Notes: a model not told the origin generated them from the sequence alone. A DNA stretch of 64,000 bases from Candidatus Kerfeldbacteria bacterium (GCA_047946875.1 CP181398.1:841041-905040), one strand, 5' to 3'. Numbered from the stretch's first letter, positions 4,096-43,841 are shown. Made by a program: numbers and translations.

Positions 4096-6252
4096 TTAAT
4101 TATCAATCTTTTTTGTTTTTATCCTCAAACTATTCAATACCACACTAACGCTAGAGAAAGCCATGGCGCCGGCTGCGATCATCGGACTTAATAATCCAAA
4201 AGCGGCTAATGGTATAGCGGCTACATTATAAAAGAACGCCCAAAACAAATTTTGTTTAATTGTATTATAGGTTATTCGTGACAAGGCAATAGCTTCAAGC
4301 ACTTTAGTCGGACTACCTTTTACCAATACAATATTGCCGGACTCAATAGCAATGTCAGTCCCAGTCCCAATAGCTATCCCAAGATCAGCCTGAACTAAAG
4401 CTGGCGCATCATTAATCCCATCACCAACCATGGCCACAATATTACCCTTTTTTTGTAATTCTTTTACCTTGTCTTGTTTGTCCTCCGGTTTCACTCTAGC
4501 CTTCCATTCATCAATACCAAGCTTATCTGCTATTACCTGGGCAGTTTTTTCATTATCTCCAGTTAACATAACGGGCTTAATCCCAAAAGATAATAATTTT
4601 TCAATAACCCCTTTTGATTCTTCTTTAACTTCATCCGCCACACTTATATATCCCATATATTTTCCATCGTAGGCTAATTCCATAACTGTCATTCCTTTTG
4701 ATTCTTCTTTATTTATTTCACCTGCTTCTATAGATGAGATAATAATATTATGCTCAACTAGAAATTCATTATTTCCAAAAAATGCTTTTTTACCATTAAC
4801 TAAGCCAGTAACACCTCGTCCTACCACAGATGAAAAATCTTTTGCCGAATCAACAACAATGTTTTCTTTTTGAGCCTTATTTACAATTGCTTTTGCAAGA
4901 GGGTGTTCGGAATTCTTTTCTAAGGCCAATGCTAACTTCAACACTTCACTAGACGTATAATCAACTACCTCTGGCTCACCTTTTGTAAGAGTCCCCGTCT
5001 TATCAAAAATAATCGTATCAATTTTCTTACCTCTTTCTAATGATTCACCATTTTTTATCAAAATACCACGACTCGCTCCTCTTCCCGTCCCAACCATAAT
5101 AGCTGTAGGCGTTGCCAGTCCTAATGCACAAGGACACGCAATAACTAATACTGCGACTGCGGGAATAATACTTTCTGAGATACTACCGGTAACCAAATAC
5201 CATATAATCGCAGTAACTATTGCTAAGCTAATCACCACTGGTACAAAAACAGCCGCAATACGATCAGCTAATCTCTGGATAGGCGCTTTTGCTCCTTGAG
5301 CTTCCTCCACCATATTAACAATCTGCGCTAATACCGTATTCTGACCGATCTTAACTGCTTCGACTTGTACTGCACCATCAATATTTATTGTTGCTCCATA
5401 AACACTATCCCCAACCTTTTTACCTACTGGCATTGACTCACCAGTTAACATTGATTCATCAATAGAGCTACGTCCAGAAATTATTTTCCCATCAACTGGG
5501 ACCTTCTCTCCTGGTTTTATTATTAACACATCCCCTACAGCTACTTGCTCCACTGGAACATCTGTCTCCTGACCATCTTTTAACAAATGTGCTGTCTTAG
5601 CGCCTAACTGTAATAACTTCTTAATTGCTTCACTTGCACTTCCCTTACTTTTTACTTCGAAATATCGTCCGAGTAATATCAAGGCAGTAATCACCGCACC
5701 AGTCTCAAAATATATTTCTGTTCCATTTTGTGTCATTACCCAGATGCTGTAAATAAATGCAGCCAATGTACCAATTGAAATCAGAGTATCCATATTTGCC
5801 GATACATTTTTAAGTCTATTCCACATACCTTTATGAAACTCAAAACCAATAACAAATATTGCGATTGCGCTCAATATCAATTGCAACCAAATAGACAAAT
5901 CAAAATTAAATATCTCCACTCCTAAATTAATCTTTGCCATAGCCAGGACCATAACTGGGATTGCAATAGCCAAAGATATAATTGCTTTATTTTTAGCTTT
6001 AGACAAGCTTTCTTCAGTCATTAACTGATTCTCTGTCGAGACATTTTTAACTACTCCGTAACCATTTTTCTTAACCACTTCATACAAATCCTCTTTAGAT
6101 AATTTTTTTTCATTATAAGTAATCGTTGCATTATTCAATGCCAAATTAACACTTACTTTATCAACTCCTTCCATTTTATTAAAACTTCTTTCATTCCTTG
6201 CACTACATGATGCACAATGCATACCGGTAATACCAAATTTTACTTTCTTCAT
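4096..6252 (-). CDS. copA: Copper-translocating P1B-type ATPase
   Basis: N-terminal HMA domain ([12 protein letters not shown]). CPC ion-transduction motif ([11 protein letters not shown]). DKTGTLT phosphorylation site. [10 protein letters not shown] hinge. Confidence 0.9.
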
Positions 6253-16929: not shown

Positions 16930-17160
16930 TATCATACATCTACCTTAACATCTTATGTATGAAGGAAACCGGTTAGAATCCGGTGCTGTCGCGCAACTGT
17001 ACTCCATAATTTTTATGGTAAGCCAGGTCGATCATACATAATTATCTTGCATATTTATTTCATAATATGCATTCTCTTCGCGTAAAAAGAGATGGGTAAT
17101 TGTTTATACAATTATGGTCGTCCAAATCCTTGTACTCGAAGTTAAGGATTTTTTTATAAA
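16930..17160 (+). promoter_or_regulatory. Cobalamin (AdoCbl) riboswitch with terminator-type expression platform
   Basis: GGAAACCGGTTAGAATCCGGTGCTGTCGCGCAACTGTA matches the cobalamin riboswitch core. AAGCCAGG B12-box-like segment. Terminator hairpin aatcctt...aaggatt + T7 at 17123-17157, just upstream of the DUF4430 gene. Confidence 0.7.
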
Positions 17161-33246: not shown

Positions 33247-36200
33247 ATGACTACTCCAGAAAAAGACAAAGAGGGAAATAATAATAATGAAAGTGACACT
33301 CCAGCCACACCTGAACTTACCGAAACAGAAAAGAAGCTAGTAGATGCTCAAGCAGAGCTAAGTTTTGATGATGTAGAATCAACAACACCAGATGAAATTG
33401 CTGATAAGACTAAAGAAAAAGCAGCAGGTGATGTCGACAAAATTAAGAGTGATTTTACCGACGCCGGAATAAATATAACAGATGTTCCAGAAGCTGAAGC
33501 AGTCATTGAAAGTGCTACAGATGCAGAGACAACTCTGGGAAAAAAAGTAGATAAAATACAGAACAATACAGCTACACCCGAAACAGAAAAAACATACACA
33601 CCCAGAGAAATAGAAAACTTGGAAAATGGTAGCGATACAGCAGTAACTGGAGAACACCTAACCATAAATACAGCTAAAGACTCCTCTATTACCGTAGAAG
33701 ATGATGCCAAACTAACAATTAATGAAGGGAGAGATAATAAAATTACAACACATGGTAGTGGTACTGCTAATATAAAATCAGGATTGGATAACGAAGTAAT
33801 TGTCGCAGAACCAAAAGATGAGAAAGAAGAAGAACCTAAATATTCAGTTGGACAAGAAGTGAGTTTTAGAAATGAATCATTTGATAGATATGAACCAGGA
33901 ACAATCAAATCAGTCCGTATAGATGACACAGGGAAGAAAAAATATACAATACACAATCCAGAAAATGGAAGAGTATTCCCAACAGAATTAAATGAGGAAG
34001 ATTTTGAAACACCTAAAGAAGAAGAAATACAGGATAATACAACTACACCCGAAACCGAAGAAACTCCAGAAGGCGAAATGCCGGTAGAAATCAGAGAAGC
34101 CAAAGAAAAAAGAAAAGAAATATATTCTGCAATCGAAGTGGGTGAAGAATCCATTCAATTACTGGAAAATAGTGATCGTAAATCATGGCTAGCCAAAACT
34201 ATTTCAAAAATAAAGAAAGCAATTAATCCCAAAACTGGTAAATATAATATTAGAGAAAGATTTGACAGCTCTTCATTAACAGGTACCGCAAAAGCTGAAG
34301 AAGGAACAATATCTAAAGAAGAAGGAATTCCTTCAGATGATATGATATCAATCATATTAGAGCGAGCAGAAAAAATTAAAGAAAGTGCCGAATTACCAGC
34401 CAATGAGCTCAAAAAAGATTTAACAAAAAGAGGTCACTATAAAAAATTAGATGCCGCTGATTCAATCAAACAATTGGTAACAGAAAAGATTAAAGAACAA
34501 GAACAAGCATCAATTAGACATTTTAAACAAGACGGAACCCTGGCAGTAGGAATGAAAAAAAACGGAAAAGGATTTACAAAAAATCATAAAGAATCTTTGG
34601 CAGGAAAAATAGTAACTGACATTTCTAATGATGACTACGATATTAATGCAGAACTTAACCAGATGGTTAGTAATCTTGATAATACCGCAGCAATATTGAG
34701 TGACAATAGTGATACATATCATGATGCAAGATATAAAGAAAACCCCAAAATGAGTGATGAAGAATATCAGACAATGCAAGAAGAAAGAATAAACAGAGAA
34801 GCAATAATTGCTGCAGGAGATTATCGTGGGGGTGAAAATGCAAGCGCAACTCTTGATATAGACAGTGCTCGTGAAACTTTGAATGGTCGTCTAGAATTAG
34901 TTATACCAGGAATATCAGATGAAGAAGAAGAATTGGATAAAAAACCAACTCCAGAAAAACCTAAACCAGAAGACGAAGAAGAAAAACCAACTCCAGAAAA
35001 ACCTAAACCAGAAGACGAAGAAGAAATAACTCCTAAATCTGAAGATGATGATGAACCTAAACCAGAAGACGAGAAAGAAGAGGAAATAAACATCAAGGGA
35101 GCAACTGATAAATATGCTGAAATGATTTCTAGAGGTAGTAAATTCTTCAAAGGTAAAAATTACGATAAAGATCTAGATCAAGCAAGAGAAGAATATGAGA
35201 CTTCTTTAATGCATTATTTAGATAAAGAAGTTAAAGAAAAACTAGATGGTATTGATCCTTTTGATCCTGAAAATCCTGAACATCAACAAAAATTTGCGGA
35301 GATAAATGAAGCGGTCATGGACCAAAGAGAAGCGCTTGGAGAAGCTATTAAAGAAATACATGAATCAACTGCTGGCAGAAAGTTCAAAAACTGGTGGAGA
35401 AAAAGTGCTAAACTTAGAATGGTAGCTGGTCTTACTTTGACAGGTGGAGCTATTGTAGCCGGTGCAACTGGTGCTGGTTTACCAATCACTGCAGCTCTTC
35501 TAGCTGGTAGAGTCGCTCTGTCAGGCGTAGGCACTACCCTAGCAGTTGAGGGTGGCTATGAATACGCAAGAACCAAATATGGTAAAACTAAAGAACTTAC
35601 GAGTAAGGAAGTAGATAAAATGAGTTTATCTGAGCTTGAGGATGCTTATGCGGCTCATACCATTAACTCATCACTCAAAGGTTTAGACAGAGGGCAAGAA
35701 GCCAGTTTCTCTGGAGGAGTTAATACTGAAAAAACATTTATTAAACCTGATGACATGTCTGACGCTAATTGGGACATATTATCAGAAAAAGATAAAAAGA
35801 AAATAGAAGGCATCGAAAAAGAATATATTAAACCAAAGATACTTCTGGACGCTGATTGGGATAAGTTATCAGAAAATAATAAGATGTTGAACCCACTTAT
35901 ATCAAGAAATAGGATTATTAAAGAAAGAAAGGATATAAAAATGATCACTGACAGACTTATGGTGCTTAAGGCAGAACAGTTTAAGGCTGATCTAGATGTC
36001 AAAAAAGAGACAGGTGAATCAGACAGTGATATTGCATATGATGTTATCATGAACAGTATGGATACTTCTGAAAAGGATGCTGACAAAAAACTTGAAGGTA
36101 GAAATGCTGCAATATTAAAAAGTAATAAAAAGAAATGGACTATCGCAGTAGCTTCAGGATTAATCATGGCAAGTGTAATCGGGGTGAGAGGATTTAACAA

Positions 36201-37830
36201 CTTACCGGAAACACCAAAACCAACCACCGAAGATGTACCAGAAGCAACTCCTATACCAGAAGAGACTCCTATAGTTGAAGATGTACCAGAAGCAACTCCT
36301 ATACCAGAAGAGACTCCTATAGTTGAAGATGTACCAGAAGCTTTTGATGGTGCTGTAACTATTGAAAAGGGTGATAACTTATGGAACATAATTAAAGATC
36401 AAGTCAAAACCCAAATGGGTGAAGAAAAATGGGATGCTCTTGGCGAAGGACAACAAACTCATTTAATTGATCAATTCAAAGACACTGTAGCTGATAATCC
36501 TGGGGCGTTTGGACTAGAAAACCCAGATAATCTAGAAATTGGTCAGCAAATTGATCTATCCTCTCTTTATGAAAAAGGTAGCGAACTTGGTACAGCTCTT
36601 GAATCGTCAGCAACCCTTACAGAAAGTCAGTTAGAAAATATAACCGCCAATAATGATACATTGCAAGATTGGGTAACAGACAATCCAGGTAAAAGATTAA
36701 CAAGTGAATTGGTTAATGAAATTTTAAGTGATGATACAGTTGACTCCGACATAGGAGCTGCTTCTGAAGCAGTAGATGGTGCAGCTGCTACAGCTGAAAC
36801 TGCTACTGAAACTTCTGCAGAAGGTGCAGCTAAAAATATAACTAATAGTACCTCAACTACCGAGACAATGACAGATGTTGCTGATACTTCAGAAGCTTCT
36901 GAAGTTGCAGATGGTGGGGATGAGACTGTTACAGAAACAGCACCTGAAGCTGTAGAACAGGCAAAAGAGTTACTGCCAGTGAATGAAAATTGGAAAGAAT
37001 TGAAAAAACTTAGAGAATCTACAAAATACCTAACTAGTAGAACGTTAGACAGAGTGACTGATATGAAAGTACAAGACTTTGTTAAAGGTGAAATACTGGG
37101 TTCGGATGGAAATCCAGTAGACCTCCAAGATCATTTATCCAAAATGGAGGGCTTCAATAATAATGAAGCGAAAAGTTTTGTAAAAAACATGAAGAGTTTC
37201 ATTGAGCATGTTGGCAAAGAAGTTGGTAATGTTGATAGGAACTGGACTGTAGGTGAATTTAGTCAGAAAACTGGATTAATAGGTCCTGATGGTCCAATCG
37301 CATCCCCTTCAATCGGTAGTGGTCTAGATCGATTCCAAGAAGCAGGTGAACAAGCAACAGAATCATTTAAAGACAAATTAACATCTGCCGACGCCTCATT
37401 AGGTGAAGCTCCGACTGATCAACTAGCCGAATTACAAGCCAGTAACGCTGATACGGTAGCTCAATCACAAAAAGTCTCTGCAAACGTTAACGAAGTGCTT
37501 AATACTAAAATCCCAGTTGAAGCTGATATGAAAGATTATTTATCAATCCAAGAAGCAACAAATAGTATTGATGAAAAAACTATGGAATATCTGACCGACC
37601 ATCTAACATTAGATGATATTATAAAAAACAAAGAAGCCGTATTTAAAGGCGATACCATTAATGTTAAAGAAATACTTTCAAGATTTGAAGGTATGAATGA
37701 TAAGCAGGCAAAAGGGCTAATAAGTGGAGTGAAGGGATTATATAAGCAACTCACCGGGCAAGGTTATCCTATCAACACGAATATGACCTTAGGAGAGTTT
37801 AGTAGCAAGATAGATATAATAGAAAAATAA
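33247..37830 (+). CDS. Giant (1527 aa) acidic repeat-containing surface/membrane protein with LysM-like segment
   Basis: Highly acidic low-complexity protein. Two predicted TM regions (MVAGLTLTGGAIVAGATGAGLPITAALLAGRVALSGVG and WTIAVASGLIMASVIGV). Tandem peptide repeats. LysM-like motif VTIEKGDNLWNIIKDQ...NPDNLEIGQQIDL. Intrinsic terminator at 37846-37874. Confidence 0.7.
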   Translation: MTTPEKDKEGNNNNESDTPATPELTETEKKLVDAQAELSFDDVESTTPDEIADKTKEKAAGDVDKIKSDFTDAGINITDVPEAEAVIESATDAETTLGKKVDKIQNNTATPETEKTYTPREIENLENGSDTAVTGEHLTINTAKDSSITVEDDAKLTINEGRDNKITTHGSGTANIKSGLDNEVIVAEPKDEKEEEPKYSVGQEVSFRNESFDRYEPGTIKSVRIDDTGKKKYTIHNPENGRVFPTELNEEDFETPKEEEIQDNTTTPETEETPEGEMPVEIREAKEKRKEIYSAIEVGEESIQLLENSDRKSWLAKTISKIKKAINPKTGKYNIRERFDSSSLTGTAKAEEGTISKEEGIPSDDMISIILERAEKIKESAELPANELKKDLTKRGHYKKLDAADSIKQLVTEKIKEQEQASIRHFKQDGTLAVGMKKNGKGFTKNHKESLAGKIVTDISNDDYDINAELNQMVSNLDNTAAILSDNSDTYHDARYKENPKMSDEEYQTMQEERINREAIIAAGDYRGGENASATLDIDSARETLNGRLELVIPGISDEEEELDKKPTPEKPKPEDEEEKPTPEKPKPEDEEEITPKSEDDDEPKPEDEKEEEINIKGATDKYAEMISRGSKFFKGKNYDKDLDQAREEYETSLMHYLDKEVKEKLDGIDPFDPENPEHQQKFAEINEAVMDQREALGEAIKEIHESTAGRKFKNWWRKSAKLRMVAGLTLTGGAIVAGATGAGLPITAALLAGRVALSGVGTTLAVEGGYEYARTKYGKTKELTSKEVDKMSLSELEDAYAAHTINSSLKGLDRGQEASFSGGVNTEKTFIKPDDMSDANWDILSEKDKKKIEGIEKEYIKPKILLDADWDKLSENNKMLNPLISRNRIIKERKDIKMITDRLMVLKAEQFKADLDVKKETGESDSDIAYDVIMNSMDTSEKDADKKLEGRNAAILKSNKKKWTIAVASGLIMASVIGVRGFNNLPETPKPTTEDVPEATPIPEETPIVEDVPEATPIPEETPIVEDVPEAFDGAVTIEKGDNLWNIIKDQVKTQMGEEKWDALGEGQQTHLIDQFKDTVADNPGAFGLENPDNLEIGQQIDLSSLYEKGSELGTALESSATLTESQLENITANNDTLQDWVTDNPGKRLTSELVNEILSDDTVDSDIGAASEAVDGAAATAETATETSAEGAAKNITNSTSTTETMTDVADTSEASEVADGGDETVTETAPEAVEQAKELLPVNENWKELKKLRESTKYLTSRTLDRVTDMKVQDFVKGEILGSDGNPVDLQDHLSKMEGFNNNEAKSFVKNMKSFIEHVGKEVGNVDRNWTVGEFSQKTGLIGPDGPIASPSIGSGLDRFQEAGEQATESFKDKLTSADASLGEAPTDQLAELQASNADTVAQSQKVSANVNEVLNTKIPVEADMKDYLSIQEATNSIDEKTMEYLTDHLTLDDIIKNKEAVFKGDTINVKEILSRFEGMNDKQAKGLISGVKGLYKQLTGQGYPINTNMTLGEFSSKIDIIEK
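34942..35025 (+). repeat. Tandem 42-bp coding repeat x2 (KPTPEKPKPEDEEE) plus a degenerate third unit
   Basis: aaaccaactccagaaaaacctaaaccagaagacgaagaagaa repeated perfectly at 34942-34983 and 34984-35025. Confidence 0.8.
36229..36341 (+). repeat. Tandem 48-bp coding repeat x2.3 (EDVPEATPIPEETPIV)
   Basis: gaagatgtaccagaagcaactcctataccagaagagactcctatagtt at 36229-36276 and 36277-36324, with a partial third copy. Confidence 0.8.
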
Positions 37831-39001: not shown

Positions 39002-39334
39002 AATTTTTTTTGTTAATTATTTAAAATATCAAATCCCGTTATATCCTAAACAACGAGTTTTACCCTATCGATTACAAGCACTGTCTTACAACCTTTTGAT
39101 ACAGAAAAAATCCAACCTCCTTTAAAACTCAATTTAGTGATCTCGATAAAATTTTCTGATTATATACAAAATTCTTCATAGTTAGGTAATTTAAATATAA
39201 TTACTAACACCAATTTCAGATACTAAATATAAGATAGTAACTCCTTTAATTCTATCTTATTTATACCTATTTTTTCCTTTAAAATCAACAAAAAAAACGA
39301 TTTTTATCGTCTTTCACTGCACATAAGCATCCAG

Positions 39335-39632
39335 CTCCGCGAGTCAGATTCGAACTGACGACCTACCGGTTACACGTAATCCATACGTTTCCGTACGGCA
39401 TGGACTATATCTTTGCCATATTCTCAAAGTGAGAATTTAGACACTCTGGTATCTAGTCTCTACGGCGCTCCCCTCCTTTAATAAAGTTTCGGAGGAGTTC
39501 CCACGGTATTAGCATATTCAAAATTAATTGAACGTAGCCTTCACCGTTATCCCAGAGAGTTCATCCCGACATTTCTGTCGGAAGCTGCGTTTTCGTTCAC
39601 AGCCGGTTGCTCTACCGCTGAGCTATCGCGGA
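39335..39632 (-). tRNA. tRNA-Asn(GUU) interrupted by a 226-nt group I intron in the anticodon loop
   Basis: Exon 1 (39599-39632 rc) UCCGCGAUAGCUCAGCGGUAGAGCAACCGGCUGU. Exon 2 (39335-39372 rc) UAACCGGUAGGUCGUCAGUUCGAAUCUGACUCGCGGAG. Together they give a cloverleaf with a 7-bp acceptor (U1:A72), loop CUGUUAA, G73 discriminator and GUUCGAAUC T-loop. The pattern matches bacterial tRNA-Asn. CCA is not encoded. Confidence 0.75.
39373..39598 (-). mobile_element. Group I self-splicing intron (IC3-like) in the tRNA-Asn anticodon loop
   Basis: Contains the group I R element GUAGAGACUAGA and S element AAGAUAUAGUCC. P1 can form between exon CUGU and the guide GCAG (U.G at the splice site). The intron ends with G. 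It resembles the Azoarcus/cyanobacterial tRNA introns. Confidence 0.75.
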
Positions 39633-39677
39633 ATTGGATGCTTATGTATTTTTAAACTTTTTAATATTTATAAATTA

Positions 39678-39971
39678 CTACTTATTTTTTGCATGAATTT
39701 CTCGATGACAGTTTGCACATAATAAAACGCATTTCTCTAATTCTTGCTTAACTTTTTGCCATCCCCTTGTATAACCCTTACTTGAAATTCCAAAATCTTT
39801 TTTACCACTTGAATGATGAAACTCTAATGCTTCCTTACAAATTTTATATCCACAGATACTACATTTATTACCTTTATGTTTTAGGGCTAATTCTCTTATC
39901 TTTTTTCTTCGCTGTGCTACAGCTTTAATTAAATACTTTGCCCGATCAGCATATTTTCTTTTATCCTTCAT
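39678..39971 (-). CDS. Free-standing HNH endonuclease
   Basis: CSICGYKIC...LEFHHSSGKK...CVLLCANCHREIH HNH/zinc-finger signature. Located immediately 5' of the intron-containing tRNA. Confidence 0.7.
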   Translation of the reverse strand: MKDKRKYADRAKYLIKAVAQRRKKIRELALKHKGNKCSICGYKICKEALEFHHSSGKKDFGISSKGYTRGWQKVKQELEKCVLLCANCHREIHAKNK

Positions 39972-43136: not shown

Positions 43137-43228
43137 TGGCGGAGAGAGAGGGATTCGAACCCTCGAAGGAATTTGACTCCCTTACTTGCTTTCCAAGCAA
43201 GCGCACTAGACCACTATGCGACCTCTCC
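43137..43228 (-). tRNA. tRNA-Ser(GGA)
   Basis: rc GGAGAGGTCGCATAGTGGTCTAGTGCGCTTGCTTGGAAAGCAAGTAAGGGAGTCAAATTCCTTCGAGGGTTCGAATCCCTCTCTCTCCGCCA. Anticodon loop UUGGAAA. Long variable arm. Encoded CCA. Confidence 0.85.
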
Positions 43229-43233
43229 AAGTC

Positions 43234-43485
43234 TTATTTAATATCAGATCGCAACATTTCTTTAAATTGAATTCCACCTTTAAAGCTTTTTATCATTAAT
43301 TCTCTCAAGTAAGCCTCCGATTTTGACTTAAACATTTCTTTATAAATTATTATCCATGGAATACCAGACTTTGTTGATCTTACAGAGCCACTATTATGTT
43401 TTTTAAGTCGTGCAATTAAATTTTTAGTATGTCCAATATAATGCTTTCTATTTTTTTCACTCTGTAAAACATAAGTAACAAACAT
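43234..43485 (-). CDS. Small stand-alone GIY-YIG nuclease (UPF0213/YhbQ-like)
   Basis: FVTYVLQSEKNRKHYIGHTKNLIARLKKHN matches the GIY-YIG motif in an 83-aa protein. Confidence 0.7.
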   Translation of the reverse strand: MFVTYVLQSEKNRKHYIGHTKNLIARLKKHNSGSVRSTKSGIPWIIIYKEMFKSKSEAYLRELMIKSFKGGIQFKEMLRSDIK

Positions 43486-43529: not shown

Positions 43530-43566
43530 CAAGCAAGCGCACTAGACCACTATGCGACCTCTCCAA
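43530..43566 (-). repeat. 37-bp perfect direct repeat of the tRNA-Ser 5' half (copy 2; copy 1 = 43194-43230), bracketing the GIY-YIG gene
   Basis: caagcaagcgcactagaccactatgcgacctctccaa occurs at both sites. Copy 2 lacks the rest of the tRNA and is followed (on the minus strand) by two GC hairpins (CCCGCAAAGCGGG, TGCCGCTCTGCGGCA). A further short remnant GGAGAGGTCC sits at ~43655. Confidence 0.8.
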
Positions 43567-43841
43567 ATTTAACTACTATAAAATATCTTATTTCATCATA
43601 ATCACTAGCATAAGGACATTTATATTATGCGCCTGCCCACCGAAGCATAGCAAAGGTGGGACCTCTCCTTATTTTAACTAAAAATAGCCAAAAATGCTAC
43701 TAATTCAGTATACCATAGCATTTTTATTCACAAAAGAAAAGGTCATAATAAGCCAATTTTGCATAATTTTATAAATATACTTGACTTATATTAATAATTT
43801 GCTAAGATGGGTGCTGGAACCTAGTATTAGGAGGGAGTAAT

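Follow-up and report, generated by a model that had tools for sequence, protein, structure and literature searches.

How is a tRNA gene to be read that is broken within its anticodon loop, enclosed by an inverted repeat and preceded by a small open reading frame (ORF): is it still a functioning gene, and what have its surroundings to do with the interruption? Such a gene lies in the 64,000-nucleotide stretch of a Candidatus Kerfeldbacteria (Patescibacteria) genome (GCA_047946875.1 CP181398.1:841041-905040) that we call the window; positions are counted from its first letter. The split gene occupies 39632-39335 on the minus strand and is interrupted between anticodon positions 35 and 36. We conclude, with a probability that we put at roughly 80%, that it is a working tRNA-Asn(GUU) gene carrying an ORF-less intron of group I at 35/36, that its precursor is closed by a helix of leader and trailer, and that the HNH endonuclease gene beside it either forms a homing unit with the intron or has been retained by the host.

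The boundaries are plain on direct reading of the sequence. Exon 1 (tRNA positions 1-35; 39599-39632, minus strand; TCCGCGATAGCTCAGCGGTAGAGCAACCGGCTGT) supplies the acceptor strand, the D arm, the anticodon stem and the final loop bases CUGU, ending in GGCUGU; exon 2 (positions 36-73; 39335-39372, minus strand; TAACCGGTAGGTCGTCAGTTCGAATCTGACTCGCGGAG) begins TAACCGG, supplies the remainder of the loop, the anticodon stem, the T arm and the acceptor strand, and ends TCGCGGAG, with G as discriminator and CCA not encoded. The spacer between them (39373-39598, minus strand) is exactly the 226 nt long reported in a preliminary description made from the sequence alone; it lacks an ORF, starts with GAACG and finishes with ACGUG. 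The group I core elements R (GUAGAGACUAGA; J6/7 and the 5' strand of P7; 39452-39463) and S (AAGAUAUAGUCC; J8/7 and the 3' strand of P7; 39402-39413), both on the minus strand, and the terminal G that the same description had picked out are all in place, the G in each of 102 aligned relatives. Helices P1 to P9 can be drawn, with GAAA loops on P2 and P9.

The search with the Rfam group I model (RF00028) that had been proposed as a check returned, in a permissive scan of 39100-39900 (801 nt), a full-model match at 39609-39381 of 47.0 bits (E=1e-10 for this local search); the gathering score is 50, and a scan at that threshold therefore reports no intron. Relatives score between 34 and 96 bits (L034 52.4, L116 65.1, L129 72.3), so that the window intron lies within the range of its family. 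These relatives came from a single pattern scan of species-representative genomes (3' strand of the D arm, CTGT, AGACTA and GATATAGTC), which yielded 103 loci with short introns, nearly all in Patescibacteria metagenome-assembled genomes (MAGs), the source genome not being among them. Covariation was counted over the 102 distinct precursors aligned, with helices defined on the window sequence—P3 and P8 by hand, because RNAalifold cannot draw P3 together with P7, a pseudoknot. Pairing is maintained through compensatory change in P2 (96% of cells paired, change in 6/6 pairs), P4 (98%, 5/5), P6 (100%, 2/2), P9 (88%, 6/7) and P3 (79%, 5/6); P6a and P8 vary in length and align poorly. The search pattern dictated part of P7 and the CUGU of P1, which are uninformative in themselves, though their partners were left free: P7 is paired in all relatives, and exon CUGU pairs with intron GCAG, with a U.G at the last exon base, in 102/102. 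In the window the 3' strand of P1 is the internal guide CGCAGCU (39583-39589, minus strand), which faces the exon's GGCUGU and the first intron G, and the pair formed just across the splice site covaries among the relatives (GC 53, AU 21, CG 16, UA 8). Model match, helix covariation and the invariant U.G and terminal G together support, at the level of sequence, the identification of the intervening segment as a group I intron in tRNA-Asn.

Two junctions would leave a U before the intron and a G at its end: one after U35, giving the anticodon GUU, and one after U33, giving UGU. Within P1, all 102 relatives pair U33 with A and have the U.G wobble at U35, which bears out the earlier placing of the splice site after U35 by way of a CUGU/GCAG helix; splicing there makes the anticodon GUU and the identity Asn. 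ARAGORN recognises the joined exons as tRNA-Asn(gtt), with a cloverleaf of 72 nt, and in the 102 relatives the acceptor, D and anticodon stems are 96-100% paired and the T stem 100%; G73 is found in 138 of 142 loci. In its 1-72 pair (U1-A72) and its discriminator (G73) the window gene agrees with the uninterrupted tRNA-Asn genes of L129 and L097 and departs from the tRNA-Thr of L077, which has G1-C72 and U73. A tRNA-Thr(UGU) with its intron two bases upstream at 33/34 (exon 1 ending ...GGCU, exon 2 starting UGUAACC), which is what ARAGORN reports when introns are enabled (tRNA-Thr(tgt), i(33,226)) and whose splice product would likewise form a cloverleaf, is scarcely tenable and was dropped, given the Watson-Crick pairing of U33, a required terminal G present in 68/102 relatives against 102/102 for Asn, a 1-72 pair and discriminator of Asn type, and the sequencing of spliced homologues through which the same miscall, already documented, was resolved (Nakagawa et al. 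2026, PMC13011429). In 14 of the 102 relatives the first base of exon 2 is C36 and the acceptor stem opens with G1-C72; these are therefore genes for tRNA-Asp(GUC) that carry the same intron at 35/36, in agreement with the published tRNA-Asp cases.

Could the intron nevertheless be a decayed relic that no longer splices, and the locus a tRNA pseudogene? A model score under the gathering cut-off and the lack of an ORF would suit decay, and with 64 kb of the genome in view another tRNA-Asn gene could exist to serve the cell. But every core helix is intact and in line with the covariation of the family, neither the U.G pair nor the terminal G is missing, the score is within the range of close relatives and the tRNA stems are perfect; moreover locus, leader-trailer helix and terminator are conserved in L106, L107, L034 and L089, and we regard decay as very improbable. 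The terminator in question is a terminator-like hairpin with a U run, identified by reading the sequence (AAAGACGAUAAAAAUCGUUUUUUUU; 39290-39314, minus strand), that directly follows the trailer arm and is kept in L089, L106 and L107; a consensus terminator scanner is silent on it because its stem has too few G-C pairs.

A split gene of this kind is in itself familiar. Williams (2020, 10.1101/2020.01.27.920355) described new classes of intron-split bacterial tRNAs, 'Asn.4Ug' among them, and Nakagawa et al. (PMC13011429) reported Patescibacteria group I introns at 35/36 of tRNA-Asn(GUU) as well as tRNA-Asp(GUC), the miscalling of Asn as Thr by ARAGORN and tFind, and the precise splicing in vitro of two homologues at the 35/36 junction. 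The window gene shares with these the tRNA, the insertion site, the host group, the ORF-less size range and the Asn/Thr miscall; its genome is absent from the Patescibacteria genomes that Table 1 of PMC13011429 lists. As an intron-split tRNA-Asn it is a further member of the published class, and its headline novelty is low. The classical introns of Anabaena/Nostoc tRNA-Leu(UAA) and Azoarcus tRNA-Ile(CAU) are likewise compact and lodged in the anticodon loop, and self-splice as the window intron is predicted to do; they too build P1 from anticodon-loop bases and carry GAAA loops on P2 and P9, and their R and S core sequences are nearly identical to those in the window. The classical bacterial tRNA introns belong to another host phylum and are classed IC3, and the insertion sites differ: 34/35 in tRNA-Leu, 36/37 in tRNA-Arg and position class 5 in Ile2 (in Williams' scheme), as against 35/36 here. 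For annotation the case has practical consequences: default ARAGORN finds only tRNA-Ser in the window and Rfam at gathering thresholds only tRNA-Ser and a cobalamin riboswitch, so that the only tRNA-Asn gene seen in the window is missed by both, and is called tRNA-Thr by ARAGORN in its intron-aware mode. Inferences of genome completeness and codon usage in Patescibacteria are affected by such omissions and miscalls.

Outside the exons the gene is flanked by an inverted repeat, which the preliminary description gave as 14 bp long and saw as an extension of the acceptor stem. The repeat exists, but its perfect part is 13 bp (39321-39333, ACATAAGCATCCA, against 39635-39647, TGGATGCTTATGT), reaching 14 with a single G.U at 39320/39648; of the two arms as given, the first was displaced by one base (GCACATAAGCATCC is 39319-39332) and the second misread in its last two (39637-39650 is GGATGCTTATGTAT, not ...GTGC). 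On the strength of fold, repeat search and compensatory changes we define the 5' leader arm as 39635-39648 (ACAUAAGCAUCCA plus the U of the terminal G.U) and the 3' trailer arm as 39320-39333 (UGGAUGCUUAUGU plus G), both on the minus strand. The repeat search joins them to the 7-bp acceptor stem in 22-nt arms that are 91% complementary (39321-39342 / 39626-39647), and the minimum-energy fold of the precursor (39652-39316) has one long helix, as had been supposed, of 14 pairs, a 1x1 mismatch and 8 pairs (-131.9 kcal/mol; z = -8.5 relative to shuffled versions). Position -k of the leader lies opposite position +(k-1) of the trailer, and U(-1) opposite G73; with this register the helix continues the acceptor stem, making a near-continuous duplex of about 22 bp.

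Comparison among the closest relatives bears on the level at which the repeat acts. Seven members of the clade have helices of 9-17 bp made from three unrelated arm sequences: L106, L107 and L089 share that of the window, apart from shifts from U-A to U.G and from A.C to A-U or G-C; in L034 and L116 the arms differ in sequence and pairing is kept by compensatory changes; and L129 has a third, of 17 bp, which includes an encoded CCA and also shows compensatory changes. The clade helices comprise 86 Watson-Crick and 9 G.U pairs, G.U changes in the arms being found in L089, L106 and L107, and since on the tRNA-sense strand the only departures from Watson-Crick pairing are G.U, the evidence speaks for an RNA helix of the sense transcript and against a DNA-level repeat. 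Unrelated helices in the same register, closed by C(-1)-G73, occur in four other lineages (L047, L182, L097, L014), and with the exception of L129 the register is identical across the helix-bearing loci of these and of the window lineage. The inverted repeat is not a product of chance: it abuts both ends of the tRNA in register and its relatives show compensatory changes. Nuclease genes do cluster beside tRNA genes in these genomes, and a mobile cassette with terminal repeats is conceivable; yet for the repeat to be a protein-binding or recombination site, the ends of a tRNA-carrying mobile element, or an accident, its arms would have to abut the tRNA in exact register with the acceptor stem, keep their pairing with unrelated sequences (L034/L116, L129) and place all 9 non-Watson-Crick pairs as G.U on the sense strand, where the other strand would have A.C, and this with no target-site duplications—a combination that makes any such explanation highly improbable.

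The helix is no general property of the intron family. Tested family-wide, a significant duplex is found in 10-14% of loci; among 142 genes with the intron, 14 have a strong duplex, and we rejected the idea of a family-wide trait. It is commoner in genes without an encoded CCA (10/49, against 4/93 with CCA; Fisher p=0.005). One of 38 uninterrupted tRNAs from the same loci has such a helix, a control set too small for a firm contrast, and the tRNA-Ser of the window has none.

RNase P is slowed by orders of magnitude where the leader is paired to the 3' end (PMC10731613), so the helix must go before 5' maturation. We infer that it is an element for processing or stabilising the precursor, most simply the target of a double-strand-specific RNase. 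There is a model for this in the leader-trailer helices of rRNA precursors, likewise long-range duplexes of about 20 bp or more around a stable RNA that are removed in maturation, in their case through cleavage by RNase III (PMC10250234); the tRNA-Asn helix, known from sequence and a predicted fold, differs in enclosing a single tRNA, in stacking directly on the acceptor stem and in being confined to some 10% of an intron family.

The main alternative is that the helix would serve splicing chiefly, as an exon clamp that holds the free 5' exon and favours the tRNA fold of the exons, without being a nuclease site. It does tie both exons together in the predicted fold, and its distribution, 14/142 intron-bearing genes against 1/38 of the small uninterrupted set, leans the same way. 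In Anabaena, anticodon-stem exon pairing in the pre-tRNA is reportedly required for self-splicing of the intron. About 90% of the family, however, the homologues tried in vitro included, splices without such a helix; a 7-bp, G+C-rich acceptor stem already tethers the exons; and even a clamp would need to be taken away to let RNase P act. We think a clamp unlikely, though the most serious competitor to a processing role. A leader-trailer helix at tRNA-Asn is not described in the literature that we consulted on these introns: a word search of the main text of PMC13011429 for 'leader', 'trailer', 'inverted repeat' and 'acceptor stem' found none of them.

The second distinctive feature of the locus is the gene that ends 45 nt upstream of the tRNA (39678-39971, minus strand). 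Its 97-aa product has a very basic N-terminus and the HNH signature CxxC...HH...CANCHRE...H, in which C37, C40, H52, H53, N87, C85, C88 and H89 are invariant or nearly so. PF01844 matches the window protein weakly (20.3 bits, cut-off 21.4) and 24 of 39 family members (best E 4e-6), and the CANCHRE motif aligns to the HNH domain of McrA (structure 6ghc; E 0.006). The protein has 549 detectable homologues. At the loci of six of these the ORF lies inside a 500-560-nt tRNA-Asn intron, where it starts in loop L1, reads through the 3' strand of P1 and through P2 and stops at a conserved GAUGAA after P2, ACGCAGCUUCC being translated as the 'TQLP' tail of these intron-encoded proteins. The free-standing gene of the window is thus a homologue of an intron-encoded endonuclease family, and this homologous gene outside the tRNA gene sets the window locus apart from the introns of PMC13011429.

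A metagenome scan with the family alignment added relatives, 577 in all, reduced to the best 80. In 63 of 82 classifiable HNH-bearing loci the intron contains the gene, which in 16 others lies immediately upstream on the tRNA's strand, in 2 downstream and in 1 divergently, and no homologue away from such a tRNA gene was found among these 82; motifs in 17 of 19 unclassifiable, mostly truncated, loci fit the same layouts. The 103 pattern-selected loci include nine with a free-standing HNH gene beside the tRNA, and most of the others have none within the examined stretch. By lineage, the gene sits in loop L1 in most; it is free upstream in the window and at least five other groups, downstream or decayed in L096 and L060, and lost from L089. 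Within the clade, the window, L106, L116, L034 and L107 have it free-standing upstream, and L129, which a neighbour-joining tree without branch support makes their sister, has it inside the intron. The homologue downstream of the split tRNA in L060 (3757-4047) has an in-frame stop and is probably a decaying copy.

That tree and a nearest-neighbour bootstrap suggest several independent switches between inside and outside, but we do not rely on their number or direction, since the tree lacks support and the bootstrap is biased by intron-encoded copies that greatly outnumber the others. A relic of exon 1 upstream of the free-standing genes was looked for because one would be expected had the gene left the intron by exon duplication; at 15 loci none stood above shuffled controls. 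At three loci (L056:5955-6269, L061:6249-6563 and L191:2498-2812) the free-standing ORF runs 10 nt into the tRNA gene, its TAG stop falling inside the tRNA's 5' end, TCCGGGGTAG.

That a gene of the intron's own family stands free suggests either homing in trans or domestication. As to the former, the arrangement resembles the collaborative homing of phages (PMC3984707), in which an endonuclease gene likewise lies beside a gene with an ORF-less intron; that model predicts both inside and outside states, and both are found here within one protein family and one intron family. The known cases concern phage protein-coding genes, the present one, by sequence comparison, a tRNA gene on a bacterial chromosome. 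That the endonuclease gene of the intron stands free is new, in that the literature we consulted on these introns does not report it. Nakagawa et al. found HNH endonucleases encoded in four such introns and most tRNA introns devoid of endonuclease genes, counted only intron-encoded endonucleases, and inferred limited mobility (PMC13011429); an endonuclease family so often placed just outside the tRNA gene weakens the inference that most tRNA introns cannot move.

Domestication, the HNH protein having become for example a cofactor of splicing or RNA processing, or being a host gene of the rpoD operon with no part in mobility, would fit the level of conservation: the ratio of nonsynonymous to synonymous substitution (dN/dS) is 0.05 between the window and L106 (synonymous sites being saturated in other pairs), identity across phyla is 65-88%, and the order rpoD-HNH-tRNA is stable across the window clade. 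A very basic N-terminus would also be in keeping with such a role. The family, however, is tied to the intron and not to rpoD, lying inside the intron or beside the tRNA in loci without rpoD; its catalytic HNH residues are invariant; the decayed L060 copy with its in-frame stop is what a homing cycle predicts; and L089 has lost the gene altogether. We judge the absence of any mobility function doubtful, while allowing it a real share of the probability.

The working gene with its intron, helix and HNH neighbour can be put together as follows. Transcription would end at the U-run hairpin just past the gene, and the exons would fold into the tRNA stems; the GGCUGU that ends exon 1 would pair with GCAGCU of the guide to form P1, with the U.G at the splice site; free guanosine would attack the 5' splice site, whereupon the intron-terminal G would occupy the same site and joining of the exons would create the GUU anticodon. 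The leader-trailer duplex, of 13-14 bp or about 22 bp with the acceptor stem, would block RNase P and 3' trimming until cut or unwound, and CCA, not being encoded, must be added afterwards. The HNH protein would be the homing endonuclease of the intron family, encoded outside the gene so that the two parts home together, or else a product kept by the host. Several observations weigh against this scheme. The RF00028 score is 3 bits short of gathering; a promoter scan of the tRNA strand gave nothing convincing; no P10 pairing is evident; and P7.1/P7.2 are not visible in the window intron, though most 35/36 introns have been assigned to subgroup IA (PMC13011429). Absence of the helix from about 90% of the family means that it is not needed for splicing in general, and an endonuclease that is selfish and nothing else would not usually show strong purifying selection through a long vertical descent.

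A bolder proposal, to which we give slightly less than an even chance, is that one HNH family and one tRNA-Asn intron family underlie every arrangement seen, that the free copies home in trans, and that the ~22-bp helix is an undescribed form of tRNA-precursor packaging. If free-standing HNH copies do cut intron-less tRNA-Asn genes, many Patescibacteria introns scored as lacking an endonuclease would be mobile in trans; collaborative homing would have its first example in a chromosomal tRNA gene of a bacterium, and the route of endonucleases into and out of introns would become traceable. In any case the HNH and intron loci supply numerous naturally occurring intermediate states in which to study the way group I introns and endonuclease genes come together. 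As for the helix, a covarying duplex that closes a precursor at its two ends implies an additional step of maturation, in organisms whose RNA-processing machinery is very reduced.

The genomic setting is that of the host group. The window has a G+C content of 32.9%, and its minus strand reads dnaG, rpoD, the 97-aa ORF, the split tRNA, a NUDIX gene and a YgjP-like gene; the order dnaG-rpoD-tRNA-Asn recurs in many Patescibacteria loci, and RpoD is 74-75% identical to those of L089 and L034. The 97-aa protein is 100% identical to one from a Candidatus Kerfeldbacteria MAG, and the same locus is found in GCA_008633355.1. Looking up the exact RpoD sequence gave no match, and it was the HNH protein that identified the host genome as that of a Candidatus Kerfeldbacteria.

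Small nuclease genes of another kind also lie beside tRNA genes, in the window and elsewhere. The tRNA-Ser(GGA) gene of the window (43137-43228, minus strand) has its 5' part, up to the anticodon loop, in a perfect 37-nt direct repeat (43194-43230 and 43530-43566) that brackets a gene for an 83-aa GIY-YIG protein (ORF 43234-43485, minus strand), giving the order partial tRNA-Ser 5' half, about 44 nt, GIY-YIG ORF, 8 nt, complete tRNA-Ser; a third, weak copy of the start of tRNA-Ser is at 43657-43681. From its sequence this looks like a free-standing GIY-YIG cassette that inserted into a tRNA-Ser gene and brought a replacement 5' half with it. L097 (2237-3148) repeats this layout with tRNA-Asn: after a 24-nt copy of its 5' end come a GIY-YIG ORF, 45% identical to that of the window, and a complete uninterrupted tRNA-Asn, with the intron-bearing tRNA-Asn next in tandem. 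L089 has, at about 4500-4848, a small GIY-YIG-like ORF (recognised by eye from the translation) in the slot of the HNH gene between rpoD and the split tRNA-Asn, and GIY-YIG homologues occur near the split tRNA in L070, L081, L086 and L042. The position just 5' of the split tRNA-Asn looks like a place where small nuclease genes land.

The L129 contig carries two tRNA-Asn(GUU) genes, one with the intron and an HNH gene inside it (688-1294) and one uninterrupted (2418-2493). The anticodon stem of the latter is CUGCA/UGCAG, not ACCGG/CCGGU, and judging by this difference it could be an endonuclease-resistant copy.

Elsewhere in the window, the plus strand carries an adenosylcobalamin (AdoCbl) riboswitch aptamer at 16937-17073 (RF01482; 61 bits, above the gathering score) and, at 33247-37830, a 1527-aa ORF without a Pfam match, which NCBI's copy of the locus annotates as a gene as well.

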